A stretch of DNA of 64,000 nt from assembly GCA_045612185.1 (NCBI GenBank), contig JAZKYO010000100.1, positions 13,606 to 77,605 on the forward strand. Reading direction: 5' to 3'. Below are positions 32,520 to 38,606 of the stretch, in pieces. The notes under the pieces are model-generated. The model searched no databases. It was not told the DNA's origin and saw only the letters and a program-made list of their open reading frames with translations. Source of the DNA: Eubacteriales bacterium. Its GTDB lineage: Bacteria > Bacillota > Clostridia > Oscillospirales > CAG-272. Both the position numbers and the translations under genes were made by a program. Position 1 is the first letter of the stretch, and each line of letters opens with the position of its first letter.

Positions 32520-33299
32520 ATGACAAACCCAAACGCCAAAATTCTTATCGCAGACGAAAACCCCATGCAAAGACAGTCGCTTAAGGACGGACTTAGAAAC
32601 GCGGGCTACCGCAACATTGACGATGCCGCCAATGGCGAGGACGCGCTGGTAAAAATAAACAGATATCACCCCGACATCGTCTTAATAGACCTTTGCCTCT
32701 CAAAGCTTGACGGTATAGGAGTTCTCAGAAACAGCAAGCAGATAAATTTCGGCAACGACGCCGCCCCTGCTTTTATCATTTTCTCGGTATTCGCCAACTC
32801 CAACACCTTTCTTGAGGCGGCAAACGCGGGTGCGGAGCTTTGCCTTATGAAGCCATACAATATCGGAAGTCTGTGCGAACACATAGAAGCTATTCTTCGC
32901 AACAGAGAAAAAGGCATTACCGCAAGCACCGCCGAAAATCAAGCGCCCGATATTGAAACCCAGGTAACAAAAATCATTCATCAAATCGGTGTACCCGCGC
33001 ACATAAAGGGCTATCAGTACCTCCGAAGTGCGATTATGATGACCATAAAGGACTCGGACATCATAAATTCCGTGACCAAGGTTCTCTACCCCACCGTGGC
33101 AAAGCAGTATCAGACCACCACAAGCCGCGTGGAGCGCGCCATTCGCCACGCCATTGAGGTTGCGTGGGACAGAGGCGACGTTGATACCCTCAACTCCTAT
33201 TTCGGCTACACTATACAGAACAACCGCGGAAAGCCCACAAATTCGGAATTTATCGCCATGATTGCCGATAACCTGAGACTTAAATACAAAATCAAATAA
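32520..33299 (+). CDS. spo0A: Sporulation master regulator Spo0A
   Basis: Receiver domain plus [41 protein letters not shown]. Confidence 0.98.
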
Positions 33300-33627
33300 A
33301 TATAAAAAAAGAACTGAGTCATTAGGGTCGTACCCTAAAGGACAGTTTTGCAAGAATACGGTATATCTCGAAAGAGGTATGCCGTATTTTTGTATTTGTG
33401 GATACAAATGCAGTGCTTGTCAAGAAAAAATGATGTCGTTAAATTCACGCTCTTTTTCAAAAAGTAAAAAGCCAAAACATAGTTTAAAATCTTAACAGGC
33501 GTAGTGAATTTGCTACGCCCTATCTGTTTGTCATACGAAATAGACCCATCACCAAGGTAGATTGTCCGCATAAGTCCAACAAAGTCCTTAAAAGTACATA
33601 TAAATAACAAAAGTTCCTCAAAAGGTC

Positions 33628-33656
33628 TTTACATTCCAAAATAATTGTGATATAAT
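33628..33656 (+). promoter_or_regulatory. Sigma-A promoter of the R-M cassette
   Basis: TTTACA-17-TATAAT with TG extension. Confidence 0.75.
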
Positions 33657-33688
33657 TATTTTGTATATCATTGTTTTAGGAGGATTTT

Positions 33689-33886
33689 ATGACAGAGGAG
33701 CTATTTACGGTCTTACAAGCTGCTGAATATTTGCAAGTTTGTGAAAAAACTGTTCGTAGACTTATTAATTCTAAAACACTTGCCGCGTCGAAGGTGGGCA
33801 AAAGCTGGAGAATAAAAAAGTCTGATATAGATAATTATTTATCCGCGACATCAAATTTATCGAAAGGAGCAATCGTCAATGAGTGA
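33689..33886 (+). CDS. Excisionase-family (HTH_17) DNA-binding protein
   Basis: FTVLQAAEYLQVCEKTVRRLI...KVGKSWRI winged-HTH pattern. Confidence 0.85.
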   Translation: MTEELFTVLQAAEYLQVCEKTVRRLINSKTLAASKVGKSWRIKKSDIDNYLSATSNLSKGAIVNE

Positions 33887-36476
33887 AGAATTGATTCAAC
33901 GCAATTTGGTAGAAGCTCCCGAGAAAATGGGAGATTGGAATTTTTATAATATAGGCGCTACCTCTCTTAAAGCATTAAAGGGTGCAAAAATTATACCTGA
34001 TCGCGACTATGAAGAGTATGAAAGCAAAAAGCCAGATGCGCTTATTGTGAAAAAACCTTTGGTTATTGCGGCTATCGAGTACAAAAAGCCATCCGAACTT
34101 CGCACGGAAAAGCAAATTGAAAAAGCAATTGCTCAAGAACTTGGTACAGCTCAAGCACTACAAGCCAAAATTTACATTGTAACTGATGGTAAAAAATCAT
34201 TTTGGATTAATCCTGCAACGGGTAAAGAAATCATCCAAGAGGATGGAAGTAAAATAACCTTTAACTTTGATAAGAGAAGCACGGATTGTATTACATTAAT
34301 TAATAAGATTCGTTCTTCCATAAGTGCGACAAACGATCAACTTAAGGAAGCTGCTTCTGTTGACCCTCTGCCTCTCGCTGAAAAGGTTTGGCAAGATTTG
34401 TGGGCGGTTTCCGGTGCGACGCCAGAAAACTGCTTGTATACCTTTGTTGAGATCTTCATATTCAAATATTTGAGTGACCTTAGTGTGCTCAAAGGAATGT
34501 ATTCGTTCTATAATTTGCTCGGAATGTATTCAGGTAATAACGAAAATGAAGTTTTGGAATACTATGCTTCTACGGTTCGTGTTAAGATCAAAGAACTGTT
34601 TCCCGGCAACCCTAAAGATAAGACTACTATTATAAACGGGACGATTTTTGTTTCTAAAGATGACAAGGCTGTTTCGGGATATGCAACGGTCTTTCACAAG
34701 ATACTTAAACGATTTAATGAGTTCGGAACACTTGAAAATATCGACTATGATTTTAAGAGTAAGCTTTTTGAAACGTTCTTAAAGGAATCTATCAGCAAGA
34801 AGAATTGGGGACAATATTTTACTCCTTTGAAGGTTGTAAGAGCTATCGTAAATATGGTAGAGCTTACTTCGGGTATGGAAATATGCGACCCCGCTTGTGG
34901 TGTTGGAAAGTTCCTTCTTGAGCCTATTTTACACGACTTGCATAAATTCTATCTTGTGCAGGGTGATGAGTTAAAGCCGCAGATTACGCTTTATGGTTAT
35001 GACAAGGGCTTTGATAAGGATGAACAAAAAACCATTATCTTGGCAAAAGCGAATATGCTGATTTATATGTCTGGTATGATTCGCGAGCATCCCGATATGA
35101 CCCAAAAGTTTGCGCAACTTTTTAATGACACGTTCCTATTGCAGACCAACTCAATTTTAGGAACATTGGCTAAGCCGATAGAGGATAAATTTGATTTGAT
35201 TCTGACAAATCCGCCGTATGTTATGAGCGGAAGTAGCAATTTAAAAGAAGAAATTGCGAAGCAAGATGAACTCAAAAAGTATTTTTCTGTCAGCGCTATG
35301 GGTATCGAAGGTCTGTTTATGGAGTGGATCGTTCGTGCATTAAAGCCGGGTGGAAAGGCTTTTGTGGTTGTTCCCGATGGTATTATGAATCGTAGCAACG
35401 ACAAGAAGCTTAGAGATTTTATTCTTGAAAAATGTAATATCGATGCGGTTATTTCTCTTCCGCTTAACACTTTCTTTACGACTAATAAGAAAACGTATAT
35501 TCTTGCCTTAACGAAAAAAACAACTGTAAATATCGGTGGAATAGAAACCCTTGAAAGGCAGACTACTCCTGTATTCACATATCTTTGCTCTGAAATCGGC
35601 GAAACAAGGGATGTATATCGTTTCGATATAGATCAAAACGATTTGGAAACTGCTTCTGACTTGTTCAATATGTTCAAAGGTGCAAAAACAAAATTCAAGA
35701 CATCGGATAAGCGCTGTAAAATTGTTGGTATCGACGATTTTTACAATGGTAGCCATTGGTCTGTTGATAGGTGGTGGTCGGACGAAGAAAAAATCGAATT
35801 GGGAATTAATGACGAGGAATCTGTGGTAACAATTGATTCTTTTGCCTCAATGTTGGGTGATGTTTCGAATTCACTTTTGGAGTGTCAAGATTTAATATCT
35901 GGTTTCAATATCGACAATAGTCAGAGCACTAAAACTATTAAACTAACAGATGAAGAATATTTTCACTTTTTCCAGAAAGAACAACTTGGGAAAACCAAAA
36001 GCGAGCTAATAAAATTGCCTACTGGAAATATTCCTGTATATACAGCAAATAAAGAACCGATATTATATATAGCCAGAACAACGAAAGATCCTATTTTCGC
36101 TTCTCAGGATGAACCTATAATATCGTTTGCAAACGACGGCGATGGTTCAGCCGGACGTAATTTTGTTTTGCATTTAGAGCCATTCTATATTAATGCTAGC
36201 CGTACTGCGTTTAAACTTATAGATTCAAATATTTTACCTGAATATGTGTTGAGCCAGATATTCGATATGAAAGAAAAATATGGATTCAACTATGGTTTTA
36301 AGGCAAACAAAAATAATCTGGCTGTTGTTACAATAGAAGTTCCGATTAATGATGATGGTGAATTTGATGTGGTTGCGCAAAAACAAATCGCAGCCAAACA
36401 TTCCGCTATTCAACAATGCAAGCAAGAAATTTCAGAAAAATTGAACGCGTTATTAGGACAAAAAATAAATATATGA
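33879..36476 (+). CDS. Fused restriction endonuclease / N6-adenine methyltransferase / specificity-domain protein (type IIG-like)
   Basis: N-terminal PD...EYK nuclease motif, GQYFTP, DPACGVGKFL, NPPY, C-terminal HsdS-like TRD. Confidence 0.85.
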   Translation: MSEELIQRNLVEAPEKMGDWNFYNIGATSLKALKGAKIIPDRDYEEYESKKPDALIVKKPLVIAAIEYKKPSELRTEKQIEKAIAQELGTAQALQAKIYIVTDGKKSFWINPATGKEIIQEDGSKITFNFDKRSTDCITLINKIRSSISATNDQLKEAASVDPLPLAEKVWQDLWAVSGATPENCLYTFVEIFIFKYLSDLSVLKGMYSFYNLLGMYSGNNENEVLEYYASTVRVKIKELFPGNPKDKTTIINGTIFVSKDDKAVSGYATVFHKILKRFNEFGTLENIDYDFKSKLFETFLKESISKKNWGQYFTPLKVVRAIVNMVELTSGMEICDPACGVGKFLLEPILHDLHKFYLVQGDELKPQITLYGYDKGFDKDEQKTIILAKANMLIYMSGMIREHPDMTQKFAQLFNDTFLLQTNSILGTLAKPIEDKFDLILTNPPYVMSGSSNLKEEIAKQDELKKYFSVSAMGIEGLFMEWIVRALKPGGKAFVVVPDGIMNRSNDKKLRDFILEKCNIDAVISLPLNTFFTTNKKTYILALTKKTTVNIGGIETLERQTTPVFTYLCSEIGETRDVYRFDIDQNDLETASDLFNMFKGAKTKFKTSDKRCKIVGIDDFYNGSHWSVDRWWSDEEKIELGINDEESVVTIDSFASMLGDVSNSLLECQDLISGFNIDNSQSTKTIKLTDEEYFHFFQKEQLGKTKSELIKLPTGNIPVYTANKEPILYIARTTKDPIFASQDEPIISFANDGDGSAGRNFVLHLEPFYINASRTAFKLIDSNILPEYVLSQIFDMKEKYGFNYGFKANKNNLAVVTIEVPINDDGEFDVVAQKQIAAKHSAIQQCKQEISEKLNALLGQKINI

Positions 36477-36553
36477 CTTTCTGTTAAGTTCAAATTAGCC
36501 GCTATCAAAGCGTGATACACACGCCGCGATAGCGGCTTTTCCATGTCAAAAGT

Positions 36554-36585
36554 AAAAGCATCGTATTTCAAGATACGATGCTTTT
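36554..36585. terminator. Bidirectional terminator at the right end of the cassette
   Basis: AAAAGCATCGTAT-TTCAAG-ATACGATGCTTTT. Confidence 0.75.
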
Positions 36586-36658
36586 GTGGTATTGCCTTCG
36601 CAATGCTCATAATTATTAAATTCTAAAAAACTGTCCTTAAGAGCACATTCCGTTCGAC

Positions 36659-37243
36659 TCAGTTCTTTTTTATGCGCACAGCGCAGAGCTTCAGCCTCAT
36701 TATTTCTTCGTTTTTAGCTGAGAATTTAAAGCTTGACGCTTCGCCGTTTATAACCGCGGTACAGGTACATTTGTTGCCGTTACACTCAAAGCTTACGCTG
36801 TCGAAAACCATAGTGTTATAGGTTTTGATTTTAAAATCAAAAACTCTGATTTTGCCCTTTTCGTAAACCGCGATTCCACGGTAAACCGATGCGTATATCA
36901 CAAACAGCCCCACAAGCGCGCCTAAAATCACAAACGAGATTTTAAGCACGGCGCTTTCAAGCATAGCAACGGCAATAACAAGGCCTAAAAACGCCAATAT
37001 CACCGCCACCACTACCGCAAACACTACACCGCCGTCAACAAAGCAATAAAATATTCTTGGATTAACAGTTTCAAAATAGAATATTATGTTATAGATTACA
37101 AACGCGCTTATGAAAACGGTAAGCCAATATTCGGGGCTTGTGTAGGACTCGTAAAAGTTCATTCTGTCGGTGAAAGGATAGACCACACCGAGAATCAGCG
37201 TGTAAACAAGCAATTTTGCAAGATATGCCAATACTTTTTTCAT
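36659..37243 (-). CDS. Hypothetical membrane protein (about 4 TM)
   Basis: Hydrophobic ORF at the distal end of the his operon. Confidence 0.7.
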   Translation of the reverse strand: MKKVLAYLAKLLVYTLILGVVYPFTDRMNFYESYTSPEYWLTVFISAFVIYNIIFYFETVNPRIFYCFVDGGVVFAVVVAVILAFLGLVIAVAMLESAVLKISFVILGALVGLFVIYASVYRGIAVYEKGKIRVFDFKIKTYNTMVFDSVSFECNGNKCTCTAVINGEASSFKFSAKNEEIMRLKLCAVRIKKN

Positions 37244-37247
37244 ATAA

Positions 37248-38606
37248 TCAGTTTTTAAGGCTGTGGATAGGCGCGGGGATTCGTCCGCCACGTGCGATAA
37301 AAGCCTCGGAGGAATTTTGGTTAAGCTTCATAATAGGAGCGTAACCGAGAAGTCCACCAAACTCTACCGACTCGCCAACTCCCTTTCCGTGTACGGGAAT
37401 AACGCGCACGGCGGTGGTCTTATTATTGACAACGCCTATGGCAATCTCGTCCGCGATGATCGCGCTAAGCGTGGATGCGGGGGTATCACCGGGAACTGCG
37501 AACATATCAAGTCCAACAGAGCAAACCGCGGTCATTGCCTCAAGCTTTTCAAGCGACAGCGAGCCACACTCTACGGCGTGAATCATGCCCGCATCCTCAG
37601 AAACGGGAATAAACGCGCCCGAAAGGCCGCCTACGTGCGAGGAAGCCATTACGCCGCCCTTTTTAACCGCGTCGTTAAGCATGGCAAGCGCAGCGGTCGT
37701 TCCATGAGTACCGCAGCATTCAAGCCCCATATTCTCAAGAATATGCGCCACGCTATCTCCCTGCGCGGGTGTGGGCGCAAGCGATAGGTCTACTATGCCG
37801 TAGGGTGTGTCAAGTCTCTTGGACGCCTCGTAAGCGATAAGCTGACCTACGCGGGTAATTTTAAACGCAATTTTTTTAATAGTCTCGGCAAGCGTACCAA
37901 AGTCACAGTCTCCCGCTTTTTTAACCGCGCAAGCCACAACTCCGGGACCAGAAACGCCAACGTTGATAACCGTGTCGGGTTCGCCAATTCCGTGAAGCGC
38001 GCCCGCCATAAAGGGGTTATCCTCGGGTACGTTTGCAAAAACAACAAGCTTAGCGCAGCCTATCGAGTCGTTTTCCTTCGTAAGGTACGCCGTCTTTTTT
38101 ATAACCTCGCCCATAAGCTTTACCGCGTCCATATTTATGCCCGCCTTGGTGGTTGCCACGTTTACGGAAGAACAAACGCAGGCGGTGGTTGCGAGCGCCT
38201 CGGGAATAGATTCTATAAGGTTCTTTGCTCCTATTGTCATTCCCTTTTGTACAAGCGCCGAATAGCCGCCTATAAAGTTGATTCCAAGTGTATCGGCAGC
38301 GCGCTGGAGGGTATGCGCCAATCTGACGTATCCATCGGGGCCAATAGAGCCGCCAATCATCGAAATCGGAGTTACCGAAACCCGTTTATTGATGATCGGA
38401 ACGCCGTAGCTTTTTTCCATATCCTCGCAAACGCTTACCAGCTTTTCAGCTTTTTTGGTTATCTTATCGTAAATTTTGGTTTCAAGTCTTGATAAGTCGT
38501 CGCTTACGCAATCGAGAAGCGAAATGCCCATAGTTACGGTACGGACATCAAGATTCTCCTCACTTATCATATGAATAGTTTCAAGAATATCAGACGTATT
38601 AAGCAT
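37248..38606 (-). CDS. UPF0210/DUF711 PFL-like family protein
   Basis: [39 protein letters not shown]. Confidence 0.93.

Follow-up and report, generated by a model that had tools for sequence, protein, structure and literature searches.

A recombinase-less gene cassette with serine-recombinase ends and a likely origin of transfer at the spo0A terminator of a clostridial genome

Directly behind spo0A, a 3,329-bp insert interrupts a 64,000-nucleotide stretch of an Eubacteriales genome (assembly GCA_045612185.1, contig JAZKYO010000100.1, positions 13,606 to 77,605; this whole stretch is called the window, and its numbering is used throughout). With a probability of roughly 0.8, we explain this insert as a gene-cassette satellite that carries both ends of a large-serine-recombinase family and a likely origin of transfer (oriT), contains no mobility genes, and was likely put into the spo0A terminator by the DUF4368 recombinase of that family acting in trans. 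The cassette is likely a satellite, made of attachment (att) sites and an oriT, of a Tn4451-like mobilisable element that targets intrinsic terminators, and it is, with well-defined boundaries, a member of a variant of serine-recombinase mobile elements that appears to be undescribed.

The insert spans positions 33324-36652 and is bounded by two 26-bp arms that point inward, with a TT core on each side. The features that define its ends are the following.

33305-33321, plus strand: left half of the split host bidirectional terminator (left arm of attB plus one loop base), a perfect complement of 36656-36671
33322-33323, plus strand: left 2-bp crossover core, TT
33324-33349, plus strand: left 26-bp element arm, 11 variable nucleotides followed by CTAAAGGACAGTTTT
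36627-36652, minus strand: right 26-bp element arm
36653-36654, plus strand: right copy of the 2-bp core, TT
36655-36671, plus strand: right half of the split host terminator, containing the stop codon of the convergent gene

The longest inverted repeat within 32800-37200 has its arms at 33305-33349 and 36627-36671, each 45 nt long and 78% complementary to the other; complementarity is perfect in the outer 16-nt arms and broken by one mismatch in the inner 15-nt arms. An earlier account made from the letters of the window (the sequence-only reading) had quoted left and right end strings, and these are present at exactly those positions. GC content is about 0.33-0.39 in the insert and mostly 0.40-0.54 in the flanks, and both arms and both cores are intact. 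Neither the list of open reading frames (ORFs) nor Pfam revealed a recombinase ORF between 33324 and 36652; they show an HTH_17 protein and an N6-methyltransferase fusion only, as the sequence-only reading had proposed for a cassette devoid of recombinase. The window cassette thus does not encode its own excision and integration, which is what marks an integrative mobilisable element (IME), while its full relatives do.

The crossover point follows from comparison with other copies. The exact inner 15-mer of the arm has 8 copies in the same genome and is present in 9 of the 14 genomes of the genus and in 106 of the 401 of the family; the reversed pattern, used as a control, matched 9 of these 401. 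The 401 are draft assemblies, and kin among them are not independent. From loci L031-L150 and the window, a script extracted 44 pairs of ends that face inward and span 0.36-3.8 kb; having been chosen from exact-motif matches and being related, they do not count as independent trials. The dinucleotide 11 nt outside the inner 15-mer is identical on both sides in 41 of these 44 pairs, and matching dinucleotides fall to 0-18 of 44 when the boundary is moved symmetrically by 1-6 nt (within -6 to +6). The arm is therefore 26 bp long, the window element runs from 33324 to 36652 and its core is TT. The attL/attR-type ends of a serine-recombinase element with a 2-bp core, as first proposed, are borne out by these pairs and by the recombinase-linked ends described below.

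The precise geometry first proposed was a phage-type attB x attP reaction, specific for the spo0A terminator, with a TC core in a 14-nt loop. TC does stand at positions 8-9 of both 14-nt spacers in the window, but those positions are identical in only 5 of 44 pairs, targets differ at every insertion and terminators of this family have 3-4-nt loops. The pair geometry refutes this arrangement, which we give practically no weight, and the TC match in the two spacers of the window is, judged from the sequences, chance. The true boundaries lie 8 nt (left) and 3 nt (right) off the TC positions, and the loop of the empty terminator, which had been taken as 14 nt, is 4 nt in the rebuilt hairpin. Nor does a single-site integrase of the phage type describe a clade that uses many terminators, as shown by 56 distinct flanks in 56 recombinase loci.

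The link between these ends and a recombinase is direct. At seven distinct places a recombinase gene lies immediately inside an end. Among 80 recombinase loci, the end stands 51-173 nt behind the matched protein stretch in 56; the other 24 comprise 20 with a variant end at the same spacing, 3 that are cut off and 1 without an end. The recombinase has Resolvase, Recombinase, Zn-ribbon and DUF4368 domains (candidate helpers L136 and L156) and is 36% identical to plasmid proteins annotated TndX. Full-length copies at an identity of at least 82% occur in 10 of the 401 family genomes, and 9 of the 10 also contain the exact end. All 56 flanks, each a different half-terminator, have a T-rich run. The core is AA (TT on the opposite strand) in 47 of the 56 recombinase-proximal ends; one divergent lineage has TC in 8 of its 9 ends. 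The dinucleotide thus tracks the element lineage, not the target, which identifies it as the recombination core. That divergent lineage (L193-L200, L229), with 81% recombinase identity, altered arm bases and a TC/GA instead of an AA/TT core, provides a natural pair for the study of core choice.

IS30-type elements have 26-bp inverted ends, a 2-bp direct repeat and palindromic targets, and so would fit the same outline. The insert could then be a non-autonomous DDE transposon (IS30- or IS1182-like, of the mobile insertion cassette (MIC) or MITE (miniature inverted-repeat transposable element) type) whose terminal inverted repeats are 26 bp long and whose target duplication is 2 bp, and an IS30-like gene does adjoin one end on contig C134. 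The IS30-like element on C134, however, has its own, different ends; no transposase-like ORF was found by eye among the ORFs of the 44 pairs; 56 of 80 loci link the ends to a serine recombinase; and the 2-bp repeat is a constant of the element lineage, as expected for a recombination core, rather than a copy of target bases. This largely refutes the transposon explanation, which we hold to be very improbable.

Outside support for the arm-11-core geometry comes from a related recombinase, cluster2730, whose att sites are listed in a supplement of PMC10083194. Its attP consists of arm, 11 nt, AA, 11 nt and arm, and its attB is a terminator-like hairpin with an AA centre. The att spacing is the same as here; the end sequence is that of the more distant subclade, and the cluster2730 attP matches the variant end of the 20 recombinase loci. 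These sites, as given in the supplement, are independent evidence for the geometry.

Comparison with recombinase-bearing elements indicates what the cassette has lost. Two complete ones, of 10.4 kb (L156) and 4.9 kb (L201), each split a hairpin with a matching core; both ends of these were recovered, and they end in tnpV and are without the mob module. Far ends could be recovered in these 2 of 28 loci with at least 1.5 kb upstream, since most contigs stop short. In L165 and L180 the order is att, cargo, oriT, mobC, relaxase, small ORF, ParB, TnpW-like ORF, recombinase, terminator and att. By alignment, the left end of the window cassette is the counterpart of the end next to the recombinase in full elements, with 68 of the first 70 bases shared with L136, and the right end of the cassette resembles their far (tnpV) end, matching that of L156 with 82% identity over 49 nt (E 7e-6). 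Everything between the oriT block and the recombinase terminator of the full elements is gone from the window cassette, which identifies it as a full element minus the mob-ParB-recombinase block. Three features inside its ends matter here.

33349-33394, no strand assigned: long hairpin (-29.9 kcal/mol, z-score -8.5), the same that follows the recombinase stop codon and serves as recombinase-gene terminator in full elements; predicted replacement terminator for spo0A
33389-33428, plus strand: likely oriT, a short inverted repeat followed by GCAGTGCTTGTCAAG, matching a block about 90 bp before mobC/NikA and the relaxase gene in full elements
36554-36585, minus strand: predicted replacement terminator for the convergent host gene, with a 13-bp perfect stem (z-score -4.9)

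The oriT-like block precedes a NikA/MobC gene and a PF03432 relaxase gene in full elements (two checked by Pfam); it is present in 10 of the 80 recombinase loci and kept in 34 of the 44 cassettes, mostly about 77 nt from an end and next to unrelated cargo. The block at 33389-33428 is a likely oriT on these grounds. Neither this likely oriT nor the helper element figured in the sequence-only reading.

In the mechanism we propose, the recombinase would excise a circle with the joint arm(26)-TT-arm(26), and this circle would recombine through the 2-bp core with a symmetric target that has an A-tract 13-17 bp to the left, a G+C-rich stem and a T-tract to the right. Such symmetric targets are mostly bidirectional intrinsic terminators. 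A helper relaxase and a conjugative element could move the circle between cells, and the outward-facing hairpins inside both ends would substitute for the terminator that has been split. An operon of helix-turn-helix (HTH) and restriction-modification (R-M) genes, with its own promoter-like site and terminator, fills the middle of the cassette.

The targets agree with this proposal. When the targets are rebuilt, 32 of 44 pairs give a fold of -15 kcal/mol or lower, compared with 27 of 1,892 mismatched flank pairings, and the loops of these 32 hairpins are 3-8 nt; the host genome contains 10 uninterrupted terminators of the same sequence family as the spo0A one, with loops of 3-4 nt. The family comparison upholds the suggestions of the sequence-only reading that the target is a terminator, that the cargo is R-M, and that the element was mobilised in trans or lost its integrase. 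Across 193 unique ends, an A-tract occupies -17 to -13 (A in 86-95% at -17 to -14), followed by a G+C-rich stretch and A/T at the core.

How such targets come to be chosen has a second explanation, compatible with trans insertion of the cassette and, in our estimate, just short of an even chance: the recombinase reads a loose A-tract/WW/T-tract, insertions outside terminators are purged and terminators dominate the survivors. A simple symmetric motif does fit 33 of 44 targets, and related multi-targeting recombinases take loose TT-core sites in foreign hosts, according to the part of PMC13137831 consulted. Strong hairpins, however, are found at 152 of 1,342 motif sites of the host genome overall and at 131 of 524 (25%) intergenic ones, compared with 32 of 44 (73%) targets; with a single genome behind it, this control is rough. 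Genomes by themselves do not tell enzyme preference from purifying selection.

As a separate observation on the ends, the core together with the first 15 arm bases (33322-33338 in the window) often makes up a short palindrome, here and at further ends, in which changes compensate one another, and at 159 of the 193 ends arm position 14 is the complement of the core base adjoining the element.

Several results weigh against insertion in trans by a family recombinase, or against parts of that account. With the queries used, no cognate recombinase or close relaxase was found in the cassette's own assembly (92.9% complete), in which the matches were limited to a piece of a DUF4368 C-terminus where a contig ends and to distant proteins with 23-33% identity. 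The exact hairpin of an empty site is absent from 13 of 13 genus relatives, and a gapped hairpin pattern gave 11 metagenome matches, none with the flanks of the window. The test on relatives that the sequence-only reading had called for comes out divided: the cassette is missing from the relatives, and the closest one (L002) has an unbroken, similar short-loop hairpin at the same place, but not the exact one. Neither a joint across the cassette nor a circle joint was present in 7 runs, searched as assembled contigs, which cannot show absence. The same R-M cassette was found in 0 of 400 other family genomes at E 1e-50, and no second insertion was seen. A matching core is missing in 3 of 44 pairs, and no strong hairpin is rebuilt in 12 of 44, several of them with unmatched flanks, which may be the ends of two different insertions. 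The oriT-like block alone folds no better than shuffles (z-score -1.2), its assignment being by position and conservation only, and a simple terminator scanner called neither 33349-33394 nor 36554-36585.

Three of these results, the missing helper in the own assembly, the failure to find the R-M cassette in the 400 other family genomes and the lack of a circle in the contigs of the 7 runs, would suit a dead remnant, in which a full element inserted, lost its mob-recombinase module in place and left an immobile cassette, much as in a cis-mobilisable element (CIME). Set against it are the same clean junction of end, terminator and oriT in most of the 34 block-bearing cassettes with their unrelated cargo, the intact arms and cores at spo0A, and near-identical recombinase-less cassettes that occupy different terminators (L127 and L134, collinear along their whole length of about 1,845 bp, with 90.7% identity). 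We therefore consider a dead remnant unlikely and retain trans insertion of a satellite.

The consequences for the host genes appear small. The two neighbours are the following.

32520-33299, plus strand: spo0A, upstream host gene (Pfam Response_reg and Spo0A_C), 259 aa as in close relatives; coding sequence unaffected
36659-37291, minus strand: convergent ORF from the ORF list, up to 210 aa, hydrophobic, outside the element, with its stop inside the right hairpin arm

The spo0A stop codon (33297-33299) lies 24 nt upstream of the insertion. A change of the spo0A 3' end by the cassette, as had been suggested, can apply to the transcript at most, since the 259-aa protein ends just as it does in close relatives; the prediction for spo0A is an unchanged protein and about 50-60 nt of additional 3' untranslated region, with no regulatory switch. 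The convergent ORF has no Pfam match and no match in 13 other genus genomes, and in the closest relative the stop codon of the next gene directly abuts the spo0A terminator, which together mark this ORF as a separate accessory gain. The location at spo0A itself seems incidental.

The cargo of the window cassette comprises two genes and their predicted signals.

33628-33656, plus strand: sigma-70-type promoter-like site, TTTACA-17-TATAAT with extended TG, an 11/12 match to the consensus and identified by that match only
33689-33886, plus strand: HTH_17/excisionase-family DNA-binding protein, 65 aa (PF12728, TIGR01764), likely regulator of the R-M gene
33879-36476, plus strand: 865-aa fused N6-adenine methyltransferase (PF02384, E 7e-37; PADLOC methyltransferase matches) with a weak HsdR_N-like nuclease domain, predicted Type IIG/IIB-like R-M enzyme
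36497-36537, plus strand: cargo terminator-like hairpin (z-score -6.5; terminator-scanner match), where the R-M module ends in other metagenome contigs

In the 865-aa protein, the HSDR_N match (E 0.0025) is below the cut-off and the C-terminal 225 aa have no Pfam match; its translation contains the motifs PD...EYK, DPACGVG and NPPY. Assignment to the MADS defence system was rejected, with MAD1 at 46.9 bits (cut-off 80), MAD2 at 113.6 bits (cut-off 720) and two genes only. The HTH and R-M genes recur in other gut metagenome contigs with different DNA beyond 36540, and they were thus likely captured as a module. A search with Rfam gave one weak match (25.5 bits, cut-off 48).

Elsewhere in the family the cargo is varied. 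By eye, the 44 pairs contain GNAT, methyltransferase, NUDIX, sigma-factor, XRE and membrane proteins, or nothing. One gene-less mini-copy of about 320 bp in the same genome (approximately G000:C130:43136-43453) has an AA core and a degenerate second arm, and it interrupts the terminator that follows a gene identified by eye as spoIVA-like. Many cassettes also carry a repetitive extragenic palindrome (REP)-like repeat with an ORF of about 122 aa, and IS30-like elements, recognised by eye at G000:C134:7648-8832 and C22:3238-3368, lie inside this repeat, itself within cassettes. The cargo of the recombinase-bearing L201 (7351-10028) includes an extracytoplasmic function (ECF) sigma factor whose C-terminus is extended by a long stretch; by eye, such a factor is also carried by the recombinase-less L079, L131 and L132. 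The 10.4-kb element contains a 1,018-aa protein (L156:4965-8021, plus strand) that matches the eukaryote-type RNA-dependent RNA polymerase (RdRP) domain (PF05183, E 6e-14). Upstream of the oriT in L180 (2-5773; far end not reached) are a 1,349-aa helicase/MrfA Zn-binding protein and a Schlafen-group/UvrD-like helicase, possibly defence cargo.

Relatives of the recombinase also occur on plasmids. On one from Enterococcus faecalis (L255:5236-7010), a 61% identical recombinase is followed by a variant end, AA and a half-terminator, so the clade reaches Bacilli. A relative at 43.5% recombinase identity on enterobacterial plasmids (L256:2174-9677) is accompanied by tnpV, a plasmid recombination (Mob) gene, tnpW and an aminoglycoside-resistance gene, and its end is unlike the ends of the cassette family.

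Mobile insertion cassettes and cargo-carrying MITEs such as MIC231 have short inverted ends, their own promoter and terminator, a variable passenger and no mobility gene, and they use DDE transposases. The window cassette is similarly built, but the enzyme to which its ends belong is a serine recombinase.

The recombinase clade, IMEs and CIMEs are already known. The multi-targeting DUF4368 recombinases described by Durrant et al. 2022 (PMC10083194) resemble those found here in their domain set, many targets, TT/AA core and A/T-rich flanks. That study treats targets as relaxed sequence motifs, and searching its text and 8 supplements for the strings 'terminator', 'hairpin' and 'palindrom' gave 0 matches. 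The exact arm of the window cassette's subclade is absent from the supplements searched, and the passages on these recombinases mention no recombinase-less cassettes. A SPLASH preprint (10.1101/2024.01.18.576133) links DUF4368 to IMEs, with no mention of terminators in the part consulted. Tn4451, as summarised in sections of PMC5704250, encodes a serine recombinase that acts through a 2-bp core, and with Tn4453 (both TnpX) and Tn5397 (TndX) it shares with our full elements such a recombinase, low target specificity, tnpV and TnpW-like genes. The elements here differ from the Tn4451 type of that review in having a PF03432 (MobP-like) relaxase with mobC, not MobV, and in targeting terminator loops, and the window copy is without recombinase or relaxase. 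IME_Rho_tet (Sidibe et al. 2026, PMC12904643) is, in the portions consulted, likewise an IME of gut Clostridia with mobC, relaxase, serine recombinase and short terminal inverted repeats, and its 3' end, 81-90 bp behind the recombinase, is similarly near that gene. It differs in inserting mostly into maff2 ORFs and in carrying tet genes; its repeat is 21 bp long.

Like the window cassette, CIMEs have kept attL and attR and lost integration and transfer genes (PMC5704250, in its passages on them), but their movement is in cis, coupled to a tandem element at a fixed site, whereas the relatives of our cassette recur alone at different sites, and no tandem element lies beside it. Relaxase-less mobilisable genomic islands (MGIs), in the same source's sections, also keep an oriT without a relaxase but encode their own integrase. 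What sets the cassette apart from both is that both enzymes are absent, both att arms and the likely oriT are kept, and copies are scattered over many terminators. Neither terminators as a target class nor cassettes of att sites and a likely oriT alone were found in the literature searched, mostly at abstract level and with few subscription papers.

With these ends present in 106 of 401 family genomes, mobile units of this class, which have no mobility gene, seem to be common, and a search that relies on integrase or relaxase genes would miss them. For part of the multi-targeting recombinase clade, whose targets have so far been in print as loose sequence motifs, the comparison offers a concrete target rule that is testable with a named enzyme (L136) and a 54-bp donor joint, and if homing to terminators is enzymatic, it would be a natural intergenic landing tool. 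More broadly, and only tentatively, as a possibility we rate below the probable, the recombinase clade may home to intrinsic terminators as a class through their symmetry or hairpin form, and so may drive a dispersed, integron-like pool of att and oriT cassettes that borrow recombinase and relaxase and restore termination on both sides. Terminators would then be harmless, reusable slots in which gut Clostridia could place defence genes and others.

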